NCBI GenBank assembly: GCA_963931495.1
Contig: OZ007020.1
Coordinates: 870,001 to 902,000, forward strand
Reading direction: 5' to 3'
From: an uncultured Alphaproteobacteria bacterium
Lineage (GTDB): Bacteria; Pseudomonadota; Alphaproteobacteria; Rs-D84
Length of the DNA: 32,000 bases
Part shown: in pieces, positions 5,483 through 31,470 of the stretch
Layout: every line of letters begins with the position of its first letter
How positions within the stretch are numbered: position 1 is the first letter of the stretch
Translations under genes and position numbers: made by a program
The notes under the pieces: generated by a model
The model's database searches: none
The model's input: only the letters and a program-made list of their open reading frames with translations
What the model was told of the DNA's origin: nothing

Positions 5483-5917
5483 CTAAAAACTGTGATACGT
5501 CGTGCCTAGGCTGTTGTATGACCTGGAATTTACACTGGTGTCACCAATTGACCCTGTTGTATAGGTTGTACCCAGACTATCATATGTTCTGGTGCTTACA
5601 TAGCTATCACCGATAGTGCCTGTCGTATATGTTGTGCCCAGACTATCGTATGATCTGGTGCTTACGTGGCTATCACCGATAGTGCCCGTTGTATAGGTTG
5701 TACCCAGACTATCATATGATCTGGTGCTTACGTAGCTATCACCGATAGTGCCCGTTGTATAGGTTGTGCCCAGACTATCGTATGATCTGGTATTTACATA
5801 ATTGCCGGCACTGTCTGTTCCAGAACAATATGTCGTACCAAGACTTTCATAACACCTGACCGATGCGAATGCGTTAACTGATATCAGCAATGATGCTAGC
5901 AATAACAATCTTTTCAT
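5483..5917 (-). CDS. Secreted protein made of 22-aa tandem repeats (moron inside the head module)
   Basis: Start moved to the ATG at 5915-5917 (AGGA about 7 nt upstream). Signal peptide MKRLLLLASLLISVNAFA|S. Then about 5.6 repeats of TRSYDSLGTTYTTGTIGDSYVS. No family recognised. Confidence 0.7.
   Translation of the reverse strand: MKRLLLLASLLISVNAFASVRCYESLGTTYCSGTDSAGNYVNTRSYDSLGTTYTTGTIGDSYVSTRSYDSLGTTYTTGTIGDSHVSTRSYDSLGTTYTTGTIGDSYVSTRTYDSLGTTYTTGSIGDTSVNSRSYNSLGTTYHSF
5486..5860. repeat. 66-bp in-frame tandem DNA repeats (coding)
   Basis: Four nearly identical 66-bp units (about 5528-5791) flanked by more diverged units. They encode the 22-aa repeats of the 5483-5917 protein. Confidence 0.9.
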
Positions 5918-5938
5918 AAACAAATCCTTTGTTCTTGC

Positions 5939-5966
5939 ATTGTAGAACAATTATTACAAATTGCAA
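5939..5966 (-). promoter_or_regulatory. Sigma70-like promoter of the repeat-protein moron
   Basis: Minus strand: TTGCAA (5961-5966), 16-nt spacer, TACAAT (5939-5944). It lies directly after the gpW stop and about 20 nt before the moron RBS. Confidence 0.5.
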
Positions 5967-6188: not shown

Positions 6189-8059
6189 TGTATTCCTCGA
6201 CTTCTAACCGTTCGCCTGTGCATCACAATGTTTGATTGTTCCTCCAAAGGCACTATCGGTTTCTTTTTTGTTTTCATTTTCAATTCCGCAAGTCTATCCG
6301 CACCCAAATCAAGATTTAGACGATAATTACGAACAAGACCTCGTAATGCCGCATATGCATAAACTCGACAATCTAAACCCTCGGTTCTAACCCCATCTTT
6401 ACGAGGGGTCCATTCTCTTATCAACCTGCCTTTACTGAGTTTTTTATGAACGACCTCATTGGTAACCTGTTCAAACCATTCTATTTCTCTATCGTATGGG
6501 AAATGCCAAACACCAGGACCACTACTGTCTTCAAGATGCAAACGACGCATCAAAATATCTTTAGCATCGTTGACTCCTATTACATATACTGGTTTTTGGG
6601 TTTTATAGCTTTTACTTGCGGTTGCCGGCCAAATAGGCTTACCTACACCACCAACACCTTTAATTGCCCAAACCCCATGTAAACGCCTGGCATAACAATA
6701 GTTGATAACATAGTCGGTATAGTGACCACCACTATCTACGCATGTTGCAGATATATGCATATCCGGAGTATCTTTGCTGTGCGGATATGCACGACAAAGT
6801 ATTTCGTCCAATTGTCCCCACAGTTCTGGTGAGCTTGGGTCACCATATAAGACTTGATAATCAATAGACCAAGATTCCTCACCACGTCCCCAACCGACAA
6901 TTTCTAACTCTAAACGGTTGTCTTGAACGTCAACACCGCAAGTCAGCACAACCACTCCTGCTGGCAAATCTTGCCCCCAACGTTCACGTCTTGCCATTAA
7001 ACTAGTCGGATCCACTTGTTCACCAGCCATATCCTGCCATGTTTCTGCCAATTTTGTGTTGGTCCACACCTGTAAACGTGACGGGTCGTCTTTGGAATTC
7101 AGAAAATCTCGTGCAATTTCTGTCCAACTTGTCCATCCATGTGGAGAATATAACGACGATAGGTGAAAAGACGCAATTTTCTTGTTTTCTGGGTGATGGG
7201 CAATCCATTTCCCTTTGCTAAGTATCTGATCTTTTTGCCAATCGTGCCATAAATCACCGCACTTCTCACACTTATAACACGCCTCTGTAAGTTTTTTAGG
7301 GTCAAACACCAAATTTTTCCAACGCAAAATTTGCATATGCCCACAACTCGGGCAAGGAACATAATAATAGCGTTGATCACCCTCTAAAAATGCTTGTTCT
7401 ATTCTGCTCGCATCTTTAATTGTTGGTGTAGACACCATAAAAATCTTTCTATTACTAAACGTGGCGGTTCTTTGTACTGCTAAATCTACTGGATCGCCCT
7501 CTGAACCTGCATCGTCAGGGAATCCATCTACCTCGTCTAAGAAAAGGTAGCGAACTGGCATAGAACGTAATCCGACAGGCGAATTTGCACCTGTCAATAT
7601 CAGAATTCCACCCGGAAATTCTTTTAACAGTATCGTATTTCCGCTATCTTTTGCCCGTGGACTGCTTATTTTTTCTTTTAATACTGGGCAACTTTCAATG
7701 GCAGGATCAATACGCATTTTTGAATTGCGCTTTGCCATTTCAGTTGTTGGGTTTACAACCAGCATTGGTCCAGGTGCATTGCAAATGCAAAACCCCATCC
7801 AATTGTTTCCGCACTCGGTTCCTCCGATTTGTGCGCCTTTCATCAAAATTACTCGTTCGCACGGATTATGCGGAGACAAACAATCCATGATTTCTTGTAA
7901 ATAAGGCGTCCTAGAGGTTTGCCATTTTCCTGGTTCACTTGAAGCAATGCTGGACAAAATACGATTTTCATCCGCCCATTCACTAACCGTTAAATCTGGA
8001 TCTGGCTTGAACCCTTGTGCAAAAGCATGCACAATAAAGCTATCATGATTCAGGTTCAT
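6185..8059 (-). CDS. Terminase large subunit, lambda gpA family
   Basis: 624 aa. Walker A-like KGAQIGGTECGNNW, acidic LFLDEVD, and Zn-ribbon CPSCGH...CEKCG, all typical of gpA-type terminases. Confidence 0.9.
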   Translation of the reverse strand: MNLNHDSFIVHAFAQGFKPDPDLTVSEWADENRILSSIASSEPGKWQTSRTPYLQEIMDCLSPHNPCERVILMKGAQIGGTECGNNWMGFCICNAPGPMLVVNPTTEMAKRNSKMRIDPAIESCPVLKEKISSPRAKDSGNTILLKEFPGGILILTGANSPVGLRSMPVRYLFLDEVDGFPDDAGSEGDPVDLAVQRTATFSNRKIFMVSTPTIKDASRIEQAFLEGDQRYYYVPCPSCGHMQILRWKNLVFDPKKLTEACYKCEKCGDLWHDWQKDQILSKGKWIAHHPENKKIASFHLSSLYSPHGWTSWTEIARDFLNSKDDPSRLQVWTNTKLAETWQDMAGEQVDPTSLMARRERWGQDLPAGVVVLTCGVDVQDNRLELEIVGWGRGEESWSIDYQVLYGDPSSPELWGQLDEILCRAYPHSKDTPDMHISATCVDSGGHYTDYVINYCYARRLHGVWAIKGVGGVGKPIWPATASKSYKTQKPVYVIGVNDAKDILMRRLHLEDSSGPGVWHFPYDREIEWFEQVTNEVVHKKLSKGRLIREWTPRKDGVRTEGLDCRVYAYAALRGLVRNYRLNLDLGADRLAELKMKTKKKPIVPLEEQSNIVMHRRTVRSRGIQ

Positions 8060-8522
8060 TTAGAAAATCCACCAAATTTTCTAGGCTTTGCCTTATTTCT
8101 TTACGAAGTATTTCTTTAATTTCATTGATATCCGTTTTCCCCACCAGCGCAGGCGCAATTCTGTCCGGAATTTTCAACAATTTATCTCTGGCAAACCTTG
8201 CAGCTGTATACGCCTCCATTTCTGTTTGTTTTAACGGAATCAAAGCACCAGACTGTTTTTCATATTCCAGCTTTTTTAGAAGTGCCTCATAAATTTCTTT
8301 TTGTGCACGACTTATCTGGAATGAAGATGCGGCTTTGCTATCGCCACGGTCTGATTGAGCCTGTGCAGGATTTGTATTCATAGACCATTGACGGTCGGCA
8401 ATTGCTGGATCAATTTTTCCGTCCGCCGTTGTTGATATGCGTCCTGTGGCTATTGCTTTACGAACAGCACCCTCAGTGACTTTTCGATGTTCGGCATAAG
8501 CTCTGAGTGATAATAAAGCCAT
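8043..8522 (-). CDS. Terminase small subunit (HTH N-terminus)
   Basis: 159 aa, overlapping the TerL start by 17 nt. N-terminal HTH-like segment LRAYAEHRKVTEGAVRKAIATGRI followed by a helical oligomerisation-like region. Call rests on position plus architecture. Confidence 0.6.
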   Translation of the reverse strand: MALLSLRAYAEHRKVTEGAVRKAIATGRISTTADGKIDPAIADRQWSMNTNPAQAQSDRGDSKAASSFQISRAQKEIYEALLKKLEYEKQSGALIPLKQTEMEAYTAARFARDKLLKIPDRIAPALVGKTDINEIKEILRKEIRQSLENLVDFLNEPES

Positions 8523-8529
8523 TGTTTAA

Positions 8530-9846
8530 TCATTTTCGTTCTGCCGCTATCTCTGCAAATGTTTTCCCAGTTGATACATGTACCGCTTTTTTACCTGTAA
8601 AGGATTCCCAACGTTTAATTATTGTGTCCACATATTTTTCATCCAGTTCTATCATTCTGCAACGGCGATTTGTTTTCTCAGCGGCTATCAATGTTGATCC
8701 AGAGCCACCAAAAGCATCTAAAATTATGTCCATGGTCTTACTGGAATTGTTTATTGCACGTTCAATCAGAGCAACAGGTTTCATTGTTGGATGTAAATCA
8801 TTATTCGTTGTCTTATCAAAGTTCCATACATCTGACTGATTTCTACCACCATACCAAGGCGTAGTTATACCGTTTTTCTTTCCTAACAGTATTTGTTCAT
8901 GTTGCGCCTTATAAACAGATTCAGTGTTACCGAATACCAACCATTCATGTTGGTGTTGATATCTTGCACGAGACAATGCAAACGAATTTTTAACCCATAC
9001 AATGTATGCTTCCCACTTGCCACCTGCATCTGTAAATGCATGATATAGGGTATGCAATTCACTACCACCCATACACACATAAACCGATCCATCGGTGTTG
9101 CTCAAGATGTTCCTCATAGCTGTCGTTAAAAAACCTTGGAATTCACTTCCAAGGTTATCATTCTGAATTGGCGCATGCTTTTCTTTATCGTTTTTCTGTC
9201 TGAAACTACCGTCATAATCCACATTATATGGAGGATCTGTAAAGGTCATATTTGCCTTTTCACCGTCCATCAAGATTTCATAACTATGTGGGTCACATGC
9301 ATCGCCACACAGCACTCTATGTTCCCCTAACTCCCATAAGTCGCCCTGGCGGTTTACCAAATGCTGTTCTTCTACGACCGGGACCAAATCCTCTTGTTCG
9401 GACAAAATCTTTTCTGATTCAAACTCTGCTTTATATTTTTCTATTTCTTTATTTGAAAAACCAAGTGTTGTTAAGTCAAAGTTGCCATCATGCAGTTGCT
9501 CCAAAGCTTGCTGCAACATGTCCTCATCCCAACCTGCATTATCAGATATCTTGTTATCCGCAATCAACAGAGCCAGTTTCTCATGTTCTGATAAGTGCTT
9601 TAACTGTGCCACCGGAACCTTTTCATAGCCCAATTCTTTACCGGCTAGCAAACGCCCGTGACCTGCGATAATTTCAAAATTTTCATCGACAAGGATAGGA
9701 TTTACCCATCCGAACTTCATCATAGACGTAGCAATCTGCTGTATCTGTTCCTTGCTATGAGTACGAGGATTTCGTTCAAATGGCTTTATCTGGTTTATGT
9801 CCAGGTATTGAATTTCCAGTTTTAAATCTTTGAAATTTATGTCCAT
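8530..9846 (-). CDS. ParB-like N-terminal domain fused to an N6/N4 DNA methyltransferase (phage orphan MTase)
   Basis: N-terminus has NPRTH...IIAGHGR (ParB/Srx fold motif). The middle has TDPPY (motif IV). The C-terminus has ILDAFGGSGST (motif I), which is the beta-class order. Confidence 0.85.
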   Translation of the reverse strand: MDINFKDLKLEIQYLDINQIKPFERNPRTHSKEQIQQIATSMMKFGWVNPILVDENFEIIAGHGRLLAGKELGYEKVPVAQLKHLSEHEKLALLIADNKISDNAGWDEDMLQQALEQLHDGNFDLTTLGFSNKEIEKYKAEFESEKILSEQEDLVPVVEEQHLVNRQGDLWELGEHRVLCGDACDPHSYEILMDGEKANMTFTDPPYNVDYDGSFRQKNDKEKHAPIQNDNLGSEFQGFLTTAMRNILSNTDGSVYVCMGGSELHTLYHAFTDAGGKWEAYIVWVKNSFALSRARYQHQHEWLVFGNTESVYKAQHEQILLGKKNGITTPWYGGRNQSDVWNFDKTTNNDLHPTMKPVALIERAINNSSKTMDIILDAFGGSGSTLIAAEKTNRRCRMIELDEKYVDTIIKRWESFTGKKAVHVSTGKTFAEIAAERK

Positions 9847-11174: not shown

Positions 11175-11197
11175 TTGAGTATCCTATATATGGGTAC

Positions 11198-11226
11198 ATT
11201 ATAGAGCAAAACAGACCGATTATCAA
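11198..11226 (-). promoter_or_regulatory. Near-consensus sigma70 promoter of the ATPase moron
   Basis: Minus strand: TTGATA (11221-11226), 17-nt spacer, TATAAT (11198-11203). AGGAT RBS precedes the ATG at 11174. Confidence 0.65.
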
Positions 11227-11259
11227 TAACATTATTCTATTTATAGGGTTTTTATTAGG

Positions 11260-12626: not shown

Positions 12627-13211
12627 TCATACCCCCTGATTTTTTGTATAAAAAGAATTCTCTTTTTCAATCCATTGCACAATATTTATCATTTGAACCC
12701 ACTGACCATTTCTTTTCTTCTTCAAACTTTCTTCTGCTTTAATTACAACTGAAAGAGGAAACATTTCTAAAAAAGTCTTAAATGCTGGACGCATTTCTGA
12801 AATCCTTTCAAAAGAGAAATTATCGTCTATTTGAATTTCAAACGGCTTTTCAACATAGTTTTCAACAGGTTCAGACGAAATACCTCTTTCACTTCTTTTT
12901 ATTTCTTTTTCTTTTTTATTTTTTATTTCTTCTACATCTTCTATTACTCCTGAAATCATCTCTGATTTCATACCTGATTTCAAAGAAAGACCAAATGCGT
13001 TTTCTCTTTTATTCCGTATTTCTGCAATTCGGTCACATTTTTCTTTATATTTTTTTGCGTCTTCTGCTATTTGCTGTTTCATATATTTCCATATGCCTAA
13101 ATCACAATCACGGTCCGGATAACAGAAAATACAACGCAATAGTTCTGCACACTGAGCATCTGTTAAATCCTGAATCAAAACCGACAGCTTTGGATCTATT
13201 AGTATTTTCAT
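12627..13211 (-). CDS. Hypothetical early protein
   Basis: 194-aa ORF with a Lys/Glu-rich middle region. No family recognised with confidence. Confidence 0.5.
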   Translation of the reverse strand: MKILIDPKLSVLIQDLTDAQCAELLRCIFCYPDRDCDLGIWKYMKQQIAEDAKKYKEKCDRIAEIRNKRENAFGLSLKSGMKSEMISGVIEDVEEIKNKKEKEIKRSERGISSEPVENYVEKPFEIQIDDNFSFERISEMRPAFKTFLEMFPLSVVIKAEESLKKKRNGQWVQMINIVQWIEKENSFYTKNQGV

Positions 13212-16564: not shown

Positions 16565-17788
16565 CTATCCGCATATTGCACTTGCAACATTGTTCACGGC
16601 TATAAAAGTCGCTTTATCCGATAAATGTGTATATCCCTCAGTCGTAGTGATTCTACTGTGTCCTGCAGCATCTCGCATTGCTATCATGTTTTGACCAGTA
16701 TTAGCCCCCATAGTTATAAATGAGTGTCGCAAATCGTGTATTCTCATATGAGGCAAATTTGCCTCTTTTAATACCCAATTAAACGCCTTTCTAATATCCT
16801 GTAATGATTGATTTGGATTTAAAATACTTGGGAAAACGTACTTACTATTCAAAACCTTTGCCTCTCTTATGGACATTTCCAATACTGGAATCACCGCATC
16901 ACAAAGCTTTACATCCCTTGCACCAGTTTTGCTATCGTGCAGGTGTATTATTTTTTCATCTAGCGCAACATCATCTATCAACAAGTCTGTTATTTCTCTA
17001 CATCTGCAACCAGTTAAAGCCAATACTTTTATAGCTCTAAATATTCGTGGATGCGATTTCCCTTTTGTTGGACCTTCTTCTAATGCTTTAAAGAATGCTT
17101 TATATCCTGCTGCATCTAATATTTGTGGTTTAAACTTTTCGTTTGAACCTTTACGAACATATACACACGGATTTGATTTCCTAGGGACATACTTATATGC
17201 CTCACACCAATCCCAGAAACTAGACATCAAAGACAATGCTTTATTTGCTGTAGAAAACGATGTTTTTTCTGCCCACAATGCATACGCATCAAGAATATGC
17301 CCCTCTTCTATTTCATCCATGTACATTTGACCGAATACCGGTTTTAAATACAATCTTAATTGATCCCAATTACTTTTTTGTGTGCGAGGTTTCTTATACA
17401 ATTTAGAATATTTTTCCATATAAAGGTTAAATGCATCTAAGAATAAATATCTTTTCTCTTGCTCCAGCACCTGTTGCTTAACGCTATCAGCATTTATCGT
17501 ATCAGACACACAGCCATCTATTATTTGTCTTTTTATCGCATTCGCTTTTCTCTTTACATCTTCAACGGTTTCATAGTCGCACATTCTTCCTAAGAATATG
17601 TTTCTACGTTTCATTGACGGTTTTAAAACACAGCCAAGGTAAAAGCTCACATTATCTGTTAGTTTAGAATATCTTAAATACAGACCAGGAATTGTACCAT
17701 CTGTTATCTGCATAAACTTATCGCCATGCAATTTTTTTATCCAGGTATCTTTAAACACCCTTTTTTTACATATCCATTTTTCTGCCAT
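16565..17788 (-). CDS. int: Tyrosine integrase, P4-type
   Basis: 407 aa. C-terminal catalytic block HDLRHSF...AAGHSRITTTEGYTH (R..HxxR..H..Y). The N-terminal arm-binding-like region (GLYLRYSKLTDNVSFYL) is typical of P4-type integrases. Confidence 0.9.
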   Translation of the reverse strand: MAEKWICKKRVFKDTWIKKLHGDKFMQITDGTIPGLYLRYSKLTDNVSFYLGCVLKPSMKRRNIFLGRMCDYETVEDVKRKANAIKRQIIDGCVSDTINADSVKQQVLEQEKRYLFLDAFNLYMEKYSKLYKKPRTQKSNWDQLRLYLKPVFGQMYMDEIEEGHILDAYALWAEKTSFSTANKALSLMSSFWDWCEAYKYVPRKSNPCVYVRKGSNEKFKPQILDAAGYKAFFKALEEGPTKGKSHPRIFRAIKVLALTGCRCREITDLLIDDVALDEKIIHLHDSKTGARDVKLCDAVIPVLEMSIREAKVLNSKYVFPSILNPNQSLQDIRKAFNWVLKEANLPHMRIHDLRHSFITMGANTGQNMIAMRDAAGHSRITTTEGYTHLSDKATFIAVNNVASAICG

Positions 17789-18033: not shown

Positions 18034-18345
18034 AAAATGTCCTTTTGACTATACGTTCAAAACATATCTTTAAGACATCTTTTTGGCTATTCAGAAATAT
18101 CTAGTTTTATCCAATTTTATCAAACAAGATTTCTTAATTCATAATTTCGAAATTCCAGTATATATACGCAGTATATATACTAAAAAACTTGTTTCTTTGG
18201 ATTTTGGTTGCTTTTGATTGCTTTAAAAACTTTGAACAAAAACACACAGAAACACATAGAAATAGTACACAGCCGATGTCACGACAAACAAAAATTCCAA
18301 GTTTTCTGCGGGATTCAGCCATTTTTGAAACAACGGTACAATTCC

Positions 18346-18390
18346 CTGTTAATCCGTATGTCACTGGTTCGAGTCCAGTTGCCCGAGCCA
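18346..18390 (+). other. tRNA 3'-half-like segment (T-arm, acceptor 3' strand, CCA); not a complete tRNA
   Basis: ACTGG-TTCGAGT-CCAGT T-arm, then TGCCCGA-G-CCA. No complementary 5' acceptor strand or D-arm is found upstream, so it is interpreted as an att core. Confidence 0.65.
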
Positions 18391-18396
18391 AGATTT

Positions 18397-18420
18397 CCGC
18401 AGATTTCTGCGGATTTTTTT
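18397..18420 (+). terminator. Intrinsic terminator after the tRNA-like core
   Basis: CCGCAG-ATTT-CTGCGG followed by ATTTTTTT. The same element occurs at 23274-23296. Confidence 0.7.
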
Positions 18421-18489
18421 ATTGTCTATCGGAAGTCCTATTTTTGGCAAAATTGGATAAAAATGGCTCTAAATTGCCCTAGTTATAAA

Positions 18490-18777
18490 ACAAAAACACA
18501 TATTTGACACACAGTAATATATACCATTACTGCTGAAATCATCTCTGAAATCACATAGATTTCATACTTGAAATCAGAGATGAAATCGTGATGAAATCAT
18601 ACCTGATTTCAGTATGATTTCAGGGCTGATTTCAGTATTGATTTCATACCTGAAAAGAGCCCCTTTTTGCCTGCGAACTATGGAACGCTATTCCGTCAGT
18701 CACAAGACTAAAACACACAAAAATCAAACAGTTATAAAAATACGATTTTCCCCTATGTGTCAAATATGTGTTTTTGT
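18490..18777. repeat. 22-bp perfect inverted repeats enclosing ten 8-mer iterons (TGAAATCA / TGATTTCA)
   Basis: IR-L ACAAAAACACATATTTGACACA is at 18490-18511, and its exact reverse complement is at 18756-18777. Forward iterons start at 18534, 18546, 18569, 18581 and 18592. Reverse iterons start at 18557 (1 mismatch), 18604, 18615, 18627 and 18639. Spacing is 11-12 bp. Confidence 0.85.
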
Positions 18778-18856
18778 ACTTTTTTATTTTTGAATAAACA
18801 ACTGGACAAAGACGAAAGAATAAGCACAAATGCAACAACTTTTAAAGGGGTTGCAT

Positions 18857-19063
18857 ATGAGCTTCAAACATTTTGATGATATTAAACCAAATGATAAGGC
18901 ACAATTTGAGATGCTGTATTTCTCTGCTCAACGGGCTTTAAGAAGGTTGGAACTTAAACTGAATAAAATTTATGGCGATAAAACGCCAAAACATTTGCGT
19001 ATAGAATTAAAACAACTCAACCGCAAACTCACCCAAATGGCAGGTGCGTGGAAATGTACATAA
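18857..19063 (+). CDS. Small helical hypothetical protein (68 aa)
   Basis: ATG at 18857 with an AAGGGG RBS. A frameshifted paralogue lies at 26240-26460. Confidence 0.5.
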   Translation: MSFKHFDDIKPNDKAQFEMLYFSAQRALRRLELKLNKIYGDKTPKHLRIELKQLNRKLTQMAGAWKCT

Positions 19064-19080: not shown

Positions 19081-19575
19081 CTATAATGGATTCACTATAT
19101 CCAAAATTTTTTCTAGAATACCCAAAATGTTATTATAATCACTATTTATACACATTTTAAACACCCCCTTGTTGGCTTCATAATCATCATTTAAATGTGC
19201 TATTGAATCCCTAAAGTTAATAAAATTTATATATACATCCCATTCACCAGAATTTACTAAACCTTCAAAAGCTTTCTTCTTACGAAAAGTATCTTTAATT
19301 ATGCTCGACAAGTTGTTTTTATTTAAATGGCCATGAAGTTGTTTTTTGCTATTTTTACTAAGTGTACTTAAATAACGCTTAGAAAATGCCGAAGATTTAT
19401 CTAAACGGTTCCCTATAATAGTATTGAGCTTTTTCTCAAATTCTGCATAACACGTAATGACTATATAGTCCACAATCATATCACCAAACTTCATAAAATC
19501 TGCTGGATTTAACGCAACTTGTATCGAGCTACAATCATTTACATGCAATCTTGAAACTTCCAATTTATTTGTCAT
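19081..19575 (-). CDS. HEPN-like protein (Rx4H motif), partner of the DUF262 protein
   Basis: 164 aa, all-helical in character. Contains FRDSIAH (R-x4-H). Start overlaps the DUF262 gene stop by 11 nt. I recall HEPN-like families that neighbour DUF262 genes, but this is not verified here. Confidence 0.45.
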   Translation of the reverse strand: MTNKLEVSRLHVNDCSSIQVALNPADFMKFGDMIVDYIVITCYAEFEKKLNTIIGNRLDKSSAFSKRYLSTLSKNSKKQLHGHLNKNNLSSIIKDTFRKKKAFEGLVNSGEWDVYINFINFRDSIAHLNDDYEANKGVFKMCINSDYNNILGILEKILDIVNPL

Positions 19576-20692
19576 TTACTATGACCTCATAAGCTAACTT
19601 TAAACGATATTCTACCTTGCTTAATGACGTAGTACCAGAAAGATCGTTATAGACTTCTTTGGCCTTTTCGGAATTTTTATAGCTAATAATCTTACTTTTT
19701 AAAGTTTCATTTGGAACATGAGTTATATGTAACAGCGCATTCATAATCGAATCAAATATTAAATAATTCATTCTTTTTGAAGATTTCATATTAAAAATAT
19801 TACTTGTTTCGTCATCAAAAGCGCTTACAAGCCCACCACAAATATTTACAAATCTGTTTTCAAAATCTTTAAACTCTTTATTTTTATTATGAGCCATAAA
19901 AGCATCTAAAAATTGTCTCATATTATTATAGTTATATAATTTTAGTTCTTTAGTATTAAAATTCTCGTATAAAGCTAAAACACGTAAAATCAGCTCCAGG
20001 TCAAAAAATCTTTCATTTTCTTTCGGCTGACCGAAAATTTTTCTCCAATTTTCGTCTTTATTTAACCTCTCTAACATATCCACCAACTTTCCAGAACTTA
20101 TTGCTCGCCTTATCTCCATTGCTTTCAATGCGACACTACTAGTATTTATGCGTTCAAATACATTATATAAAAATGTATCATCTTTAGGCTCTATAGCTCT
20201 TATTATCATAGCACTTAAAAATGTGTTATTCTCCAACCTATTTTTGTATTTTTCTAATTCCCCTGTTAATTGTTTAAACTTTTTTCCACTCAAAATAGAA
20301 TCGTTTTTTAATAACAAAGAAAATTTATTATTAAAAAAATCCGATATTGTATTCAGCCGTTGCCAACCATCAACCACCCAATATCCCTCATCTTTAGGCA
20401 ATTGATATAGCATAATTGGTGGGACGGGATACCCCTTTAAAAAAGATTCTATTAAACGGCTTTTGGTTTTAGTGTTCCATATAGAATTTCTTTGAAAAAT
20501 TGGTTTTTTAAAAACTGTTTTAAATTTTGAATTGTATTCATTTATACTAAATGTCGCTATATTTGTAACAATATCTATATCTAAATTATCTGCTGAAACA
20601 GGTTCTTCTTCCAAATCTTCGAATTCTAAAGCAACGTCAACAAGTTCCTTAACCTTTTGGTCTTCATTGAAATTTTCAAAACTTTCTGTCAT
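19565..20692 (-). CDS. DUF262 (ParB-like, GmrS-type) domain protein lacking a DUF1524 nuclease domain
   Basis: 375 aa. IFQRNSIWNTKTKSRLIESFLKGYPVPPIML...VVDGWQRLNTI matches the DUF262 signature (FQR..VW......LI.S.l.g.P.P...........DGqQRl.t). No HNH/His-Me motif is seen in the C-terminal half. Confidence 0.75.
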   Translation of the reverse strand: MTESFENFNEDQKVKELVDVALEFEDLEEEPVSADNLDIDIVTNIATFSINEYNSKFKTVFKKPIFQRNSIWNTKTKSRLIESFLKGYPVPPIMLYQLPKDEGYWVVDGWQRLNTISDFFNNKFSLLLKNDSILSGKKFKQLTGELEKYKNRLENNTFLSAMIIRAIEPKDDTFLYNVFERINTSSVALKAMEIRRAISSGKLVDMLERLNKDENWRKIFGQPKENERFFDLELILRVLALYENFNTKELKLYNYNNMRQFLDAFMAHNKNKEFKDFENRFVNICGGLVSAFDDETSNIFNMKSSKRMNYLIFDSIMNALLHITHVPNETLKSKIISYKNSEKAKEVYNDLSGTTSLSKVEYRLKLAYEVIVNDK

Positions 20693-20753: not shown

Positions 20754-21290
20754 TTATTTCGGAACCGGCAATCCTAACCTTTGTAATGGTATGTATTCAA
20801 AATAATACGAACAACCAACAGACACAATGTAATCCAATACATCCTTATAACAAGACTGTTTAAACCAATCGCTTAATAAATAAATGTATTCAACTTCCAT
20901 GTTTAGCTGTGCTAGTAACTTTTTATACTGCTTCTTCTTAAAATCGCATGTTTGCAACTTTTCATCGACAGAACCCGCAACCTGTTGAAATTTGCACTCT
21001 ATAACAAAAAAAGTGTTATTTGCTACTACATATATAGAGTCATCAGGTAATAATTTTTTTGATAAAATACTTTGCCATTTAATGCCACGATACGTTAAAA
21101 ATTTATACAAAGCGTTTTTCTTAAAGATCGAGGCAACCTCAACACCATTGTACGAAACAGAAACCCATCCCCTTTCATCATCGATACACTCGTAGCCCTT
21201 TTGAAGACACAGAAATGTACGTAGGTCCGTTTTCCCCTCAAAAACCAATCCTGTTTTAGTATTTGCACCGCCTATTCCATTAGCTTTCAT
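20754..21290 (-). CDS. Putative type II restriction endonuclease (PD-ExK)
   Basis: 178 aa. LLPDDSIYVV...FFVIECKFQ gives PD...E-x-K. The start ATG overlaps the upstream methylase stop (TAATG). It sits at the third position of an M-M-R operon. It does not resemble R.DpnII as I remember it. Confidence 0.6.
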   Translation of the reverse strand: MKANGIGGANTKTGLVFEGKTDLRTFLCLQKGYECIDDERGWVSVSYNGVEVASIFKKNALYKFLTYRGIKWQSILSKKLLPDDSIYVVANNTFFVIECKFQQVAGSVDEKLQTCDFKKKQYKKLLAQLNMEVEYIYLLSDWFKQSCYKDVLDYIVSVGCSYYFEYIPLQRLGLPVPK

Positions 21291-22075
21291 TATACTATTC
21301 CTTTCTTTTTAAGGATATCATACAGCCTTTTTTCTGCCAATTCAACAAATTGCGCTTCCTGCTCTATGCCGACAAACATTCTGTCATATTTTAATGCCGC
21401 AACCCCAGTTGTCCCACTGCCCATAAATGGGTCTAATATTAAATCGCCTGGATTTGTACAACATAAAATAATTCTTTCCAATAAGTCCAATGGCTTTTGT
21501 GTAGGATGCCTGCCAAAAGTTTTTTCTGATTTTGACGGCGTTGGAATAGACCAAACACTGCGCATCTGACAATCCGGCTTTTTCAAAATATCTTTTGGAA
21601 ATGCACCGCATTTCATAGCATTGTAATTAAATATATGCTTTGCGTTCTTACTTTTTCTTGCCCAAATAAGTGTTTCATGGCTGGCAGTAAAGTATCTACA
21701 AGACATATTTGGACTGGCATTTGGTTTATACCACGCCACATCATTTAATATATGAAAGCCCAACAACTGCATTGCAAAGCCACATGAGTATATACTGTGG
21801 TATGTACCACTTATCCAAATTGTGCCATTGGGTTTTAACACTCTCCGACATGCGGAAAGCCACTTTTTATGAAACTCAAAATCATTCATCAACCCGTGCG
21901 ACTCGTCCCACTTACCTTTATTAACCGACACAACTTGACCATTTTGGCACGTTATACCCCCATTTGACAACATATAAGGCGGATCCGCAAAAATCATATC
22001 AAAGGTATTTTCTGGAATCTGTTCCAGACACGTTAAGCAATTTTCACAATAAAGACGGAAGGGTTTATTAGTCAT
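21290..22075 (-). CDS. N6-adenine DNA methyltransferase, DpnA (M2.DpnII)-like, beta class
   Basis: 261 aa. FADPPYMLSNGG...VVSVNKGKWD...KPNGTIWISG...HPTQKP...LDPFMGSGTTGVAA closely parallels DpnA along the whole length. Confidence 0.85.
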   Translation of the reverse strand: MTNKPFRLYCENCLTCLEQIPENTFDMIFADPPYMLSNGGITCQNGQVVSVNKGKWDESHGLMNDFEFHKKWLSACRRVLKPNGTIWISGTYHSIYSCGFAMQLLGFHILNDVAWYKPNASPNMSCRYFTASHETLIWARKSKNAKHIFNYNAMKCGAFPKDILKKPDCQMRSVWSIPTPSKSEKTFGRHPTQKPLDLLERIILCCTNPGDLILDPFMGSGTTGVAALKYDRMFVGIEQEAQFVELAEKRLYDILKKKGIV

Positions 22076-23000
22076 AATTAGTTATCAATAACTCACGAAT
22101 AGCACTACGACCATCTGCATTTGCGTTTATCAGACGTTTTGCAAGTATTCTGTTTATATTATAGTCTTGGTATAAATCATCAAAAAATGTATCGTTTACA
22201 TAATTTGTTGGGTCTGAATTACTTAACATCTGTAAAGCACCCGCTTTATCACACGCTTCAAAAACGTTCTTAAGGCGAATTTGCTCATCATCATTAAAAT
22301 CCCCAACAGCATAAGAATTAAACGAAGATGTTTTTCTAATCGGGCGATATGGTGGGTCGTAATAGATAAACGTATCTTTTTTTACATACTCTTGAACAGA
22401 ACTAAAATCTGTTTGGATTATTGTCGCAATCTGTAAAGCGTCTGATACATTACGCAAATTTTCTGCATCTAATATTCTTGGATTGGTGTACTTACCCATC
22501 GGAACATTAAACATATTTTTTGAATTAACACGAAATAAGCCATTAAAACAGGTTCGGTTTAAGAATATGGTCAACGCTGCACGTCTGATAAACCGCTGAT
22601 TATAAATATTTGCATCGACAGTTTTGTCCATGCTGTTATATTCATCACGCCTTGTATAGTAATATTCTTTTTTATCTTCTGTATGATTGTACTCTGTACT
22701 TATTTTTGTCAGTTCAACTATCAATTTTTCAACATCATTTTTGATAACATTATACAGAATAACCAGCTCAGGATTGATATCAAACAATAAGGCTTCTTGT
22801 ATTTTGTAGTTATTATAAATATCAAAGAATACAGCCCCACCACCGACGAATGGTTCTATATATCTTTTTATTCCGCCCATTTTCAATTTTAAGGGCAGTT
22901 TTTCATCGATTTTATCTAATAGTTGCCCCTTGCCACCTGCCCATTTTAATACAGGTTTGCACTCAATATAATCAGCTAATTTTGCCGGTAGTGGTGACAA
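22068..23000 (-). CDS. Dam-family (D12 class) N6-adenine DNA methyltransferase, DpnM-like
   Basis: 310 aa. LKWAGGKGQLL, EPFVGGGAVFF and YYDPPY. Probable TTG start at 23000 behind AGGAAAGGAAAGA. An 8-nt overlap joins it to the next gene. Confidence 0.85.
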   Translation of the reverse strand: MSPLPAKLADYIECKPVLKWAGGKGQLLDKIDEKLPLKLKMGGIKRYIEPFVGGGAVFFDIYNNYKIQEALLFDINPELVILYNVIKNDVEKLIVELTKISTEYNHTEDKKEYYYTRRDEYNSMDKTVDANIYNQRFIRRAALTIFLNRTCFNGLFRVNSKNMFNVPMGKYTNPRILDAENLRNVSDALQIATIIQTDFSSVQEYVKKDTFIYYDPPYRPIRKTSSFNSYAVGDFNDDEQIRLKNVFEACDKAGALQMLSNSDPTNYVNDTFFDDLYQDYNINRILAKRLINANADGRSAIRELLITNYD

Positions 23001-23083
23001 TCTTTCCTTTCCTTTACGATTTGATATTACAAAATCACGCCACCTAAATCCAGTAGTAATTTTTTACTTATAGTTGTTTTTAA

Positions 23084-23296
23084 TTGCTTTTGATTGCTTT
23101 AAAAACTTTGAACAAAAACACACAGAAACACATAGAAATAGTACATAGCCCATGTAACCGCAAATAAAAAATCCAAGTTTTCTGCGGATTTCAGCCGTTT
23201 TTGAAAAATTTGTACAATTCACTGTTAATCCGTATGTCACTGGTTCGAGTCCAGTTGCCCGAGCCACGAATTTCCGCAGATTTCTGCGGATTTTTT
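23084..23296 (+). repeat. 213-bp direct repeat, copy B (att-like, with tRNA 3'-half-like core 23222-23266 and terminator 23274-23296)
   Basis: See copy A. The core CTGTTAATCCGTATGTCACTGGTTCGAGTCCAGTTGCCCGAGCCA is identical in both copies. Confidence 0.9.
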
Positions 23297-23418
23297 AATA
23301 CTTTTTTTAATTTAACATTTTTAACAAAACCCCTACATTGTTCGTAAAACTGTCAGAAAGTTCGTTAGAAAAACATATATTTTCATACGGGATACACATA
23401 TGTTTTTTTAATTATCAC

Positions 23419-23622: not shown

Positions 23623-23672
23623 TATATTATGCAAAGAACAGCAGAAGCGGTGTCTTTGGGACATCCAGATAA
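23517..23672 (+). CDS. Candidate leader peptide (51 aa uORF) overlapping the metK-like start
   Basis: AAGGAG (23504-23509), 7 nt, ATG. Peptide is MQIFLYFMPHFAQCFCTCVGSYMNPPLVLTAKTKGVYYAKNSRSGVFGTSR. The Pro-Pro codons (23589-23594) lie on the switch sequence. Confidence 0.35.
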   Translation: MQIFLYFMPHFAQCFCTCVGSYMNPPLVLTAKTKGVYYAKNSRSGVFGTSR

Positions 23673-24639
23673 AATCGCCGATTACATTTCAAGTTATATC
23701 TTAGATCGGTTAATTGAGCAAGATCCACAGGTCAAATATGCCGTTGAAGTCTTAATAAAAGATAACAATGTCGTCCTTGGTGGCGAAGTTACCACCTCTG
23801 CCCCACTTGGTAATTTGACCGACTATGTTAAGGCCGCCATTGCCGAAATCGGGTACAATGACCGATACGCATCAATATGGGGCGATTTGGCCATTAACCC
23901 AGCGCAAATAAAGGTTACCAATTTAATTGGCGTACAATCCGCAGATATCAATCGTGGTGTTGTTGCCGATGGCTGGGGCGATCAAGGTGTGTTTGTTGGC
24001 TATGCCTGCCAAGGCGAAGGTAAGATAAATCGGGAATTATATTTGGCCCGAAAGCTGAACAAAGCCCTGTACGATAAAGCCCGTCAATCTGATAATCTCG
24101 GCATAGATATCAAGACACAAATCACATTGAACGACGACAAGATTGAAACCACTATTGTGGCAATCCCGATGTTAAAGGACGAAGACCTGACCGACTTTAT
24201 CATTGAAACATTGGGCGAAAAGCCAGCGCACATTATCATAAATGGTACTGGACGTTATACATATCATGGTTCCATAGCAGACTGTGGCATTACAGGACGA
24301 AAATTGGCATGTGACTTTTATTCAACCGCATGTCCGATTGGTGGTGGCAGTCCATGGACAAAAGATGCTAGCAAGGCAGATTTAACCCTTAATGTGTATG
24401 CCCGTATCTTGGCGTGCGAGAACTTGGCCGACAACGACGAATGTTTTGTTTACCTGTCTTCGTGCATTGGGCGTGCCGAACTGCCAAGCGGCCTGATAAA
24501 AACGGTTAAAAACAGCATTGTTTCCTATCGTGATCTGTGGTGCAATCACAAACCAAGTAACTTGATAAAAGCATACGGTTTAGATAAACCGATCTATGCA
24601 AAATTATGCGACAAAAGTATATCTGGAATACAGAATTAA
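23629..24639 (+). CDS. metK: Compact S-adenosylmethionine synthetase (MetK) homologue, 336 aa
   Basis: GHPDKIADYIS, GGEVTTS, GDQGV.VGYA, DIKTQIT, NGTGRY, ADCGITGRKL, GGGS and TKDASKADL all align with the E. coli MetK catalytic blocks. It is about 50 aa shorter than bacterial MetK. Confidence 0.8.
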   Translation: MQRTAEAVSLGHPDKIADYISSYILDRLIEQDPQVKYAVEVLIKDNNVVLGGEVTTSAPLGNLTDYVKAAIAEIGYNDRYASIWGDLAINPAQIKVTNLIGVQSADINRGVVADGWGDQGVFVGYACQGEGKINRELYLARKLNKALYDKARQSDNLGIDIKTQITLNDDKIETTIVAIPMLKDEDLTDFIIETLGEKPAHIIINGTGRYTYHGSIADCGITGRKLACDFYSTACPIGGGSPWTKDASKADLTLNVYARILACENLADNDECFVYLSSCIGRAELPSGLIKTVKNSIVSYRDLWCNHKPSNLIKAYGLDKPIYAKLCDKSISGIQN

Positions 24640-29943: not shown

Positions 29944-31470
29944 TGCTATCGCCAGCAATAATATCCAAACACGTTGCAGACACCACAAATCTAGGATGTA
30001 ATTCAACCTGGGTTGATTTATAGGATGTTTACAATTACTACACCGGTATCTGTAACTAGGGCGCAACAATACAGAAACCTGACGCGCACGCCATAAAATA
30101 TGGGTGCGATTCAACCATAGGTTGTATATTTTCATATTCACAATTATTGTAACGGCATATGCAAACATATTTACATCAGTGCCATAAAACGGTGAAAACA
30201 CTATAAAATCGGGCCGTAATTCAACCTAGGGTTGAACAAAACGATGTTTGTATCCGGTAAGTCGTTATCTGTAATAATATGTAAAATATGCTACGTGCAC
30301 CGCAAAATGTGAACATAATTCAACCATAGGTTGAATTTTGCGATGCTTGTAATTCGTAAATCGGCATTTATAATTGGGGTATAATAACTCAAAACATGCT
30401 GCACACACTATAAAACATAGATGCAATTCAACCCCAGGTTAAATGCTGTAATGTTTACGATTGACGCGCTATCGCCAGCAAGAATATCAAAACACGTTGC
30501 AGACGTTATAAATCTGGGACGCAATTCAACTATGGGTTGAACGTTGCGTTATTCACAACTGACGAACAGCCGTCAGCAACAATACAAAATATGGTGTATA
30601 TACCGTAAAACATGGGCGAGATTCAATCATAGGTTGTATATCGTCATATTCACAATTACTGCGCCGACATCTATAACCAGGGCATAACAATGCAAAAAAC
30701 ATGGCGCATAGGCTATAAAACATGGGTGCGATTCAACCACAGGTTGAACGACATCATATCAACAATCAGCATACTGTTGCATATAATAATATTAAAACTC
30801 CTTATAGACATTGTAAATCGTGGGTACGATTCAACCTAAGGTTGAACAAAACGATGTTCGCAACTGGTAATTCGGCGCCTGTAATAATATATAAAATATG
30901 CTGCACACACTATAAAACATAGACGCAATTCAACCCCAGGTTAAATGCTGTAATGTTTACGATTGACGCGCTATCGCCAGCAAGAATATCAAAACACGTT
31001 GCAGACGTTATAAATCTGGGACGCAATTCAACTATGGGTTGAACGTTGCGTTATTCACAACTGACGAACAGCCGTCAGCAACAATACAAAATATGGTGTA
31101 TATACCGTAAAACATGGGCGAGATTCAATCATAGGTTGTATATCGTCATATTCACAATTACTGCGCCGACATCTATAACCAGGGCATAACAATGCAAAAA
31201 ACATGGCGCATAGGCTATAAAACATGGGTGCGATTCAACCACAGGTTGAACGACATCATATCAACAATCAGCATACTGTTGCATATAATAATATTAAAAC
31301 TCCTTATAGACATTGTAAATCGTGGGTACGATTCAACCTAAGGTTGAATTATGTAAGTTTTACGATTAGTGTCCCATCGCCTGTCGCAACATCAAAACAC
31401 GCTGCACGCACGATAAACCATGGGTGTAATTCAACCATAGGTTGAATATCAATGTTTTTTACAATCGTTA
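29944..31470. repeat. Array of 15 diverged ~100-bp tandem units, each with the palindrome TTCAACC-N3-GGTTGAA; includes a 502-bp-period secondary duplication
   Basis: Palindromes start at 30002, 30110, 30220, 30319, 30427, 30525, 30622, 30732, 30830, 30929, 31027, 31124, 31234, 31332 and 31430. Block 30396-30846 matches 30898-31348 with 1 mismatch. Confidence 0.9.

Follow-up and report, generated by a model that had tools for sequence, protein, structure and literature searches.

A putative PD-T4-2-type DUF262 and HEPN gene pair behind a restriction-modification operon in an att-bounded cassette of an uncultured alphaproteobacterium

We analyzed a stretch of 32,000 nucleotides (nt) from an uncultured Alphaproteobacteria bacterium of the Rs-D84 lineage (contig OZ007020.1, positions 870,001 to 902,000), hereafter the window. 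The subject is a pair of genes on its minus strand, gene A for a DUF262 protein and gene B for a small protein of presumptive HEPN type, which stand last in a block of five genes (Table 1). An original prediction, made from the letters of the window, had described them as an overlapping pair, and the overlap is real, as the two open reading frames (ORFs) of 375 and 164 amino acids (aa) share 11 nt. Together they span 1612 nt. The coding strand at the junction reads GCT TAT GAG GTC ATA GTA AAT GAC AAA TAA, with the gene B ATG embedded in it and a GAGG placed 9 nt 5′ of that ATG. The embedded start codon and the GAGG suit translational coupling of B to A.

Table 1 Features of the gene pair and its surroundings (window coordinates)
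Feature	Position	Strand	Description	Basis or remark
Gene A	19565..20692	-	375-aa ORF	ATG start
Gene B	19081..19575	-	164-aa ORF	ATG start
Overlap of A stop and B start	19565..19575	-	ATGACAAATAA, 11 nt	Putative translational-coupling junction
DUF262 motif I	20477..20494	-	QRNSIW, residues 67-72 of A	Translation; motif definition PMC12065111
DUF262 motif II	20357..20371	-	DGWQR, residues 108-112 of A, predicted nucleotide-binding/hydrolysis centre	Translation
R-x4-H motif	19195..19212	-	RDSIAH, R122...H127 of B, predicted HEPN catalytic motif	Conservation, helix position
E47	19435..19437	-	Acidic residue in YAEFE of helix 2 of B, predicted to complete the active site	Invariant
77-aa ORF	18830..19063	+	Convergent with gene B	Ends 17 nt from gene B stop
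PD-(D/E)XK protein	20754..21290	-	178 aa, presumed restriction endonuclease	Pfam PDDEXK_11, 1.7e-6
N6_N4 DNA methyltransferase	21290..22075	-	Beta-class, DpnA/CcrM-like	N6_N4_Mtase
Dam-family N6-adenine methyltransferase	22068..23000	-	D12 class, first of the five genes	MethyltransfD12
Left att repeat	18202..18422	+	~150-nt arm, 3′ half of tRNA-Asn(GTT), terminator hairpin	
Right att repeat	23078..23299	+	Same composition as left repeat	Homology to other genomes breaks inside

When the gene A protein was compared with Pfam, GmrSD_N (DUF262) was the sole match, with an E value of 1.8e-23 and a score of 84.1 bits (cut-off 33.2) over residues 56–198. No GmrSD_C/DUF1524 match appeared even at E ≤ 1, so the protein is, as had been claimed, a DUF262 protein without DUF1524. 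The three DUF262 motifs have been defined as QRxxxW, DGxQR, and FxxxN (PMC12065111), and the third takes the form FERIN at residues 179–183. In all 11 pairs compared, QRxxxW and DGxQR are kept, while the x of DGxQR varies (W/L/Q/H/K/F/Y/S). The homologues of gene A numbered 104 at E ≤ 1e-10, every one of them DUF262-only.

Two PADLOC models cover nearly the whole protein. One is NsnA of the Menshen system (6.2e-54, 181.7 bits, residues 29–371 on model positions 36–379 of 385). The other is PD-T4-2_A (7.3e-40, 135.1 bits, residues 63–371 on model positions 55–361 of 363), from the PD-T4-2 system of E. coli ECOR65 that Vassallo 2022 lists as ‘DUF262, HEPN’ (supplement of PMC9519451). SspE, HEC-05, and HEC-06 gave no match to the protein at E ≤ 1. 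Since it aligns end to end with both the NsnA and PD-T4-2_A models, the gene A protein is not a truncated GmrSD. The description of the pair as a split GmrSD, an enzyme cut in two, was therefore rejected; the DUF1524 part is missing. Dazbog was likewise rejected, as no Dzb model was among the PADLOC matches of either protein at E ≤ 1. On these alignments, the gene A protein is a DUF262 protein (ParB-like nucleoside triphosphatase, NTPase) with a C-terminal, DNA-binding ParBDB domain of the NsnA/PD-T4-2_A type and without a nuclease domain, and is predicted to act as a sensor and regulator.

Because NsnA is the top PADLOC match, outscoring PD-T4-2_A as given above, the pair might be thought of as what remains of a Menshen system after loss of NsnB and NsnC, with the small second ORF unrelated or non-functional. 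However, NsnA outscores PD-T4-2_A also for A proteins whose HEPN partner is an undisputed PF18735 protein, and hence the ranking is not diagnostic. Neither an NsnB ABC-ATPase gene nor an NsnC inPIN-effector gene lies beside the pair, whose neighbors are the 178-aa PD-(D/E)XK protein, the two methylases, and the 77-aa ORF, and there is no ATPase gene in the cassette. Gene B, moreover, is a conserved gene, its catalytic residues being invariant and its synteny with A strict across 12 loci, as described below. We regard a Menshen remnant as extremely improbable.

Relatives of gene B are few. A word-indexed search gave four clusters at 90% identity, and an exhaustive HMMER search of 1.84 billion representatives gave 12 representative clusters at E ≤ 1e-3. 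With a four-sequence alignment as query, a scan of 185,579 species-representative genomes gave no relative. Thirteen sequences with identities down to 20% were aligned, and the only invariant residues were M1, L158, Y43, E47, R122, and H127. The last four of these, Y43, E47, R122, and H127, are invariant also in an alignment of 17 sequences that includes annotated HEPN proteins. The R-x4-H motif thus goes beyond chance. HEPN domains have been defined by Rx4–6H with a polar N, D, or H after the R and by an acidic residue in helix 2 (PMC3710099). In the gene B family, 12 of the 13 sequences have D, N, or H directly after R122 (residue 123), and one has R.

Profile comparisons point the same way. 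When the 13 family members were scanned singly, PF18735 (HEPN_RiboL-PSP) was touched by ten, with a best E value of 1.9e-8, and PF18737 (HEPN_MAE_28990) by five. One member, P0015, exceeds the Pfam gathering score for PF18735 (30.4 vs 28.4 bits), and a precomputed PF18735 label exists for three members. In hhalign, the family profile matched three Pfam-annotated HEPN partners with a probability of 94.2% (E 1.2e-7). When only the 11 unannotated members were aligned with eight PF18735/PF18737 partners, the probability was 97.4% (E 1.1e-11) over 119 columns, in which both YAEFE and R-x4-H are in register, YAEFE being aligned with YAEIE of the annotated partners.

The structure of the gene B protein was predicted by AlphaFold2 with the 13 sequences. 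The model is all-helical with a predicted local distance difference test (pLDDT) value of 88.5 and a predicted template modelling (pTM) score of 0.86, all five models being at least 80. Helix 1 comprises residues 6–21, and helix 2, which bears E47, residues 24–60. After a helical insert (62–108), helix 3 (111–127) carries R122...H127 at its end and is followed by a loop, and helix 4 is kinked (132–143 and 147–161). In this model, the predicted order of the helices and the places of the motifs are in line with the HEPN description of PMC3710099. Taken together, the profiles, the motif, and the secondary-structure layout support that the gene B protein is of HEPN type, as a diverged RiboL-PSP/MAE_28990-like member. 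By analogy with other HEPN proteins, it is predicted to be a ribonuclease (RNase) effector.

Whether A and B belong together was examined from both sides, and in 12 of 12 distinct loci B was found immediately after A in the same orientation, so the pair does co-occur in other genomes. Starting from B homologues (loci numbered L001–L003, L004–L009, L014, L015, L016, and one NCBI contig), a DUF262-only gene of 355–378 aa stood directly upstream in every locus. Starting from A homologues with 26–46% identity, a small HEPN-type gene stood directly downstream in all six loci, namely, L010, L011, L012 (Aliiroseovarius crassostreae), L013, the E. coli plasmid pLR-27_3, and the P2-like phage P24B2. 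This downstream gene is PF18735 or PF18737 by Pfam in five of the six. In the 11 pairs measured, the A–B junctions range from -11 to +10 nt, and R-x4-H is kept in all 11. The identities of A and B to those of this locus were 73/52, 46/37, 44/32, 42/32, and 31/19% (A/B), indicating that B diverges faster than A. The invariant catalytic residues and the strict synteny across 12 loci argue that gene B is not a decaying ORF.

The faster evolution of B could also be expected if the pair were a toxin–antitoxin-like addiction module, in which a HEPN toxin is neutralized by the DUF262 protein and the cassette is stabilized, phage defence being incidental. HEPN proteins are toxins in HEPN–MNT systems, and the weak structural neighbors of gene B are such toxins; the overlapping, translationally coupled genes and their placement in a mobile cassette that lacks an integrase, at a tRNA-Asn hotspot, would also suit such a module. 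On the other hand, a protein of 375 aa with fully conserved NTPase motifs is far beyond what a simple antitoxin needs. The large protein comes first and the small toxin second, and there is no MNT-type partner. Furthermore, PD-T4-2, with a homologous architecture, protects its native strain against T4, as its deletion in ECOR65 restores T4 plaquing. Addiction is therefore an improbable account of the pair, although less so than a Menshen remnant.

Several results weigh against reading the pair as a PD-T4-2-type module. The gene B protein by itself had no useful match in Pfam, PADLOC, or NCBIfam (a Poxvirus_B22R_N match at 0.062 was set aside as chance). The PADLOC model PD-T4-2_B matched neither the gene B protein at E ≤ 1 nor any of the 13 family members at E ≤ 10. 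In fold searches with the gene B model, no match in the PDB was significant (best E ~1.4–2, HEPN proteins being among the weak matches), and the top match in BFVD, a MAE_28990-like HEPN protein, was not significant either (E 1.4). The gene B profile gave chance matches only among PDB sequences (E ~0.3). Finally, the literature searched holds no biochemical mechanism for PD-T4-2, so that the RNase activity, the A–B complex, the trigger, and the abortive outcome considered below are our inferences.

The failure of PD-T4-2_B was put in proportion by controls. Three partners that Pfam annotates as PF18735 likewise go unmatched by PD-T4-2_B, and the HEPN partner of the E. coli plasmid is matched weakly (4.4e-4), which implies that the model is narrow. 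The checks proposed with the original prediction thus came out in part. The library scan returned DUF262 for the first protein and no direct HEPN family for the second, and PADLOC matched A to PD-T4-2_A and left B unmatched by PD-T4-2_B. Likewise, the claim that the second gene encodes a HEPN protein with R-x4-H holds up by profile, motif, and secondary-structure layout, and is short of a significant fold match. On balance, we consider it probable that the pair is a two-gene PD-T4-2-type anti-phage module with A as sensor and a diverged HEPN protein as B.

Upstream of the pair lies a restriction-modification (R-M) operon, the order of the block being Dam-family methylase, N6_N4 methylase, PD-(D/E)XK protein, A, and B. 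The Dam-family methylase matches Pfam MethyltransfD12 (1.3e-60) and NCBIfam TIGR00571 dam (9.2e-83), and the N6_N4 methylase matches Pfam N6_N4_Mtase (1.7e-59) and PADLOC MTase_II (2.3e-98). The 178-aa PDDEXK_11 protein, the presumed restriction endonuclease (REase), shows no similarity to the DpnII REase of L010. In the relatives L001, L002, L010, and L015, the same slot is occupied by PF04556 DpnII or a DpnII-family homologue, and in L001 and L002 the two methylase genes are separated by a further gene of 179 aa without annotation.

In the subclade whose A proteins are at least 41% identical, the pair stands directly downstream of a Dam/DpnII-type R-M system wherever the upstream side is visible. 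The gap between R-M and A is 61 nt at this locus, 16 nt in L001–L002, 9 nt in L010, and 9 nt in L015, where a DpnII fragment is seen. The 61-nt gap contains one weak promoter-like site only. One further pair follows a 1247-aa type IIG-like enzyme, and more distant pairs have no R-M gene nearby (L011–L014 and the 3.9-kb E. coli plasmid). This distribution among the sequences argues for a lineage-specific association with R-M, functional or otherwise.

The block of five genes is bracketed by a direct repeat of ~220 nt, 90–97% identical, which is regarded as an attachment (att) repeat. The core of the repeat is the 3′ half of tRNA-Asn(GTT), of which exactly two copies are present in the window against zero expected. 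ARAGORN found no tRNA in the window, and Rfam gave no RNA family in the window or the att repeat. The repeat is explained by comparison with L007, where an intact tRNA-Asn (11182–11257) takes the place of the left repeat and abuts the same block, and where there is no prophage. Homology with L005, L007, and L008 stops within the att repeats. The att bracketing and these breaks inside the repeats mean that the five genes form one att-bounded island, 4.9 kb long and without its own integrase. The original prediction of an att-flanked cassette beside a type II R-M operon was hence right about the flanking repeats, but the R-M genes lie inside the same att-bounded unit rather than beside it.

The defence-island context that had been claimed is real. 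To the left, the cassette stands in tandem with an integrase-bearing prophage (integrase at 16565–17788, with a gpA terminase, a portal protein, and an S49 protease further left), and on the right a SocA/Panacea antitoxin-type gene and an Eco57I-type methylase add to the genes of defence type. The 77-aa ORF convergent with gene B accompanies the cassette in all close relatives, being called as a gene of 68–77 aa in L004–L009. It has no match in Pfam, and its membership in the A–B system is uncertain.

Such linkage raises the alternative that all five genes make up one system, in which DUF262 reads the modification of DNA left uncut by the type II enzyme and fires HEPN as a back-up. The candidate trigger would be the adenine methylation state, or hypermodified or pre-methylated phage DNA. 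This alternative draws on the constant position of the subclade directly 3′ of R-M, the movement of the five genes as a single att-bounded unit, the member behind the type IIG-like enzyme, and the single weak promoter-like site before gene A. However, the distant pairs stand alone, and PD-T4-2 works as a cloned two-gene unit (PMC9519451 supplement). The REase has also been swapped (PDDEXK_11 vs DpnII) with the pair retained, which argues for loose coupling, and defence genes commonly cluster without functional dependence. We think a single five-gene system unlikely, while giving it more credence than addiction. If it were true, restriction and abortive infection would be coupled in one mobile, integrase-less cassette.

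Other features of the surroundings were observed as well. At the tRNA-Asn(GTT) locus, att-bounded cassettes appear to be arranged in tandem. In the species-representative genome L019 (762–837; 4198–4431), an intact tRNA is followed by ~2 kb, a MetK-like gene, and then a further att copy; this att copy beyond the MetK-like gene suggests that the 336-aa S-adenosylmethionine-synthetase-like gene of the window (23629–24639) is itself cassette-borne. In some metagenome-assembled genomes, two copies are found on one contig (L040/L043 and L022/L048). Through the MetK-like gene, the host was placed near ‘Candidatus Enterousia’, as an uncultured alphaproteobacterium of gut or rumen. In L008, a full-length GmrSD of 681 aa (GmrSD_N and GmrSD_C, 7653–9698) lies between the cassette and the prophage, placing a classical DUF262–DUF1524 enzyme side by side with a DUF262–HEPN pair.

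The prophage carries a 438-aa fusion of ParB_N and an N6_N4 methyltransferase (8530–9846, minus strand), and this phage-borne methylase could affect sensitivity to the neighboring R-M system. Short repeats rich in TGATTTCA and TGAAATCA (D8, D10, D11) occur inside the left end of the cassette (18519–18653) and in the prophage (12936–12982), and may be putative sites for a recombination directionality protein or a regulatory protein. A tandem repeat of a 66-nt unit, present about five times (5495–5824), falls within the prophage ORF 5483–5950 (minus strand) between the portal and terminase genes. Shortly after the Eco57I-type methylase gene has begun, an array at 29945–31440 repeats a ~45-nt unit that contains AATTCAACC. 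Its copies, at least 13 in number, are 60–78% identical and spaced by 98–110 nt, and the array includes a 300-nt block duplicated at 99% (30391–30690 and 30893–31192). The spacing and identity of this array are not CRISPR-like.

How a PD-T4-2-type module of A and B might work can be conceived from better-known relatives. In GmrSD, BrxU, and SspE, the DUF262 domain senses modified or foreign DNA, and NTP hydrolysis switches on the attached nuclease (PMC12065111, PMC10952713). HEPN domains with an intact Rx4–6H are RNases, predicted or shown (PMC3710099). By analogy, A and B would form a complex in which the HEPN RNase is kept silent. The gene A protein would bind phage DNA, which we speculate is probably modified to escape the neighboring type II enzyme, and this binding would activate B in an NTP-dependent manner. 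Activated B would then cleave RNA (mRNA, tRNA, or rRNA), and phage growth would stop, probably with loss of the infected cell. PD-T4-2 was reportedly selected on T4, and the DNA of T4 is glucosyl-hydroxymethylated.

PD-T4-2 is a validated defence system without a described mechanism in the literature searched, and this locus extends its family, as far as the HEPN partner is concerned, into sequence space missed by PADLOC, Pfam, and NCBIfam. Because the models miss the HEPN partner, it will be undercounted when gut and rumen Alphaproteobacteria are surveyed for defence systems. Drawn from very divergent sequences, the invariant residues of B (Y43, E47, R122, and H127) and the motifs of A (QRxxxW, DGxQR, and FxxxN) are clean targets for mutagenesis. 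The compact 4.9-kb cassette is a natural construct for studying which DNA feature DUF262 senses and whether restriction and RNase defence cooperate.

With respect to known systems, the gene A protein resembles GmrSD, BrxU, and SspE in its N-terminal DUF262 NTPase with QRxxxW, DGxQR, and FxxxN, and in the presumed logic of sensor plus effector. It differs in that those enzymes are single chains with a DUF1524 His-Me nuclease, whereas the effector here is separate and predicted to cut RNA. Similarity to Menshen (NsnABC) extends over the full length of the gene A protein, which is NsnA-like in having DUF262 and a ParBDB-type C-terminal domain (PMC12065111), and the proposed logic would be alike in that a DUF262 sensor is linked to an effector of RNase type. 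However, the effector here would be a stand-alone HEPN protein, with neither the NsnB ABC-ATPase transducer nor the NsnC inPIN-nuclease effector; the term ‘HEPN’ has no occurrence in the Menshen paper.

The implied novelty of a DUF262 protein paired with a HEPN protein did not survive comparison, because the combination with a RiboL-PSP-type HEPN is already PD-T4-2 (PMC9519451, PMC10952713) and appears in the 2013 HEPN survey (PMC3710099). That survey lists ‘Ribo L-PSP-HEPN ... operon with ParB’ and shares a neighborhood theme with this locus, in that small HEPN proteins are encoded beside a ParB/DUF262 protein and in some cases beside DNA methylases as well. The gene B protein likewise has the R-[NDH]-x3-H motif and the acidic residue of helix 2. 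It is a comparative-genomic catalogue, however, whose resulting Pfam models miss the present subfamily, and the five-gene cassette is not described there. PD-T4-2 is tabulated under DUF262 and PF18735 alike in the review PMC10952713, and RefSeq labels the pair of the E. coli plasmid as ‘DUF262 domain-containing protein’ and ‘HEPN domain-containing protein’. The architecture is already known, and the overall picture is unchanged by this locus.

The closest counterpart is PD-T4-2 itself, whose HHpred matches are PF03235 (99.7%) for A and PF18735 (97.8%) and PF18737 (96.9%) for B (PMC9519451 supplement). In both cases, adjacent same-strand genes encode a DUF262 protein of ~350–375 aa without DUF1524 and a ~165-aa protein of the RiboL-PSP/MAE_28990 HEPN type with R-x4-H, and the ORFs span similar lengths (1540 nt in ECOR65 and 1612 nt here). 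The present B protein differs in being too diverged for a direct match to PD-T4-2_B or PF18735, its homology emerging only via family profiles. The genes here overlap by 11 nt and stand at the end of a Dam/DpnII-type R-M operon, in a tRNA-Asn att-bounded cassette of a low-GC uncultured gut alphaproteobacterium. From these comparisons, the locus appears to belong, as a strongly diverged member, to the PD-T4-2-type DUF262 and HEPN class that is already known. Specific to it are the HEPN partner beyond current models, the R-M linkage of its subclade, and the 4.9-kb integrase-less cassette.

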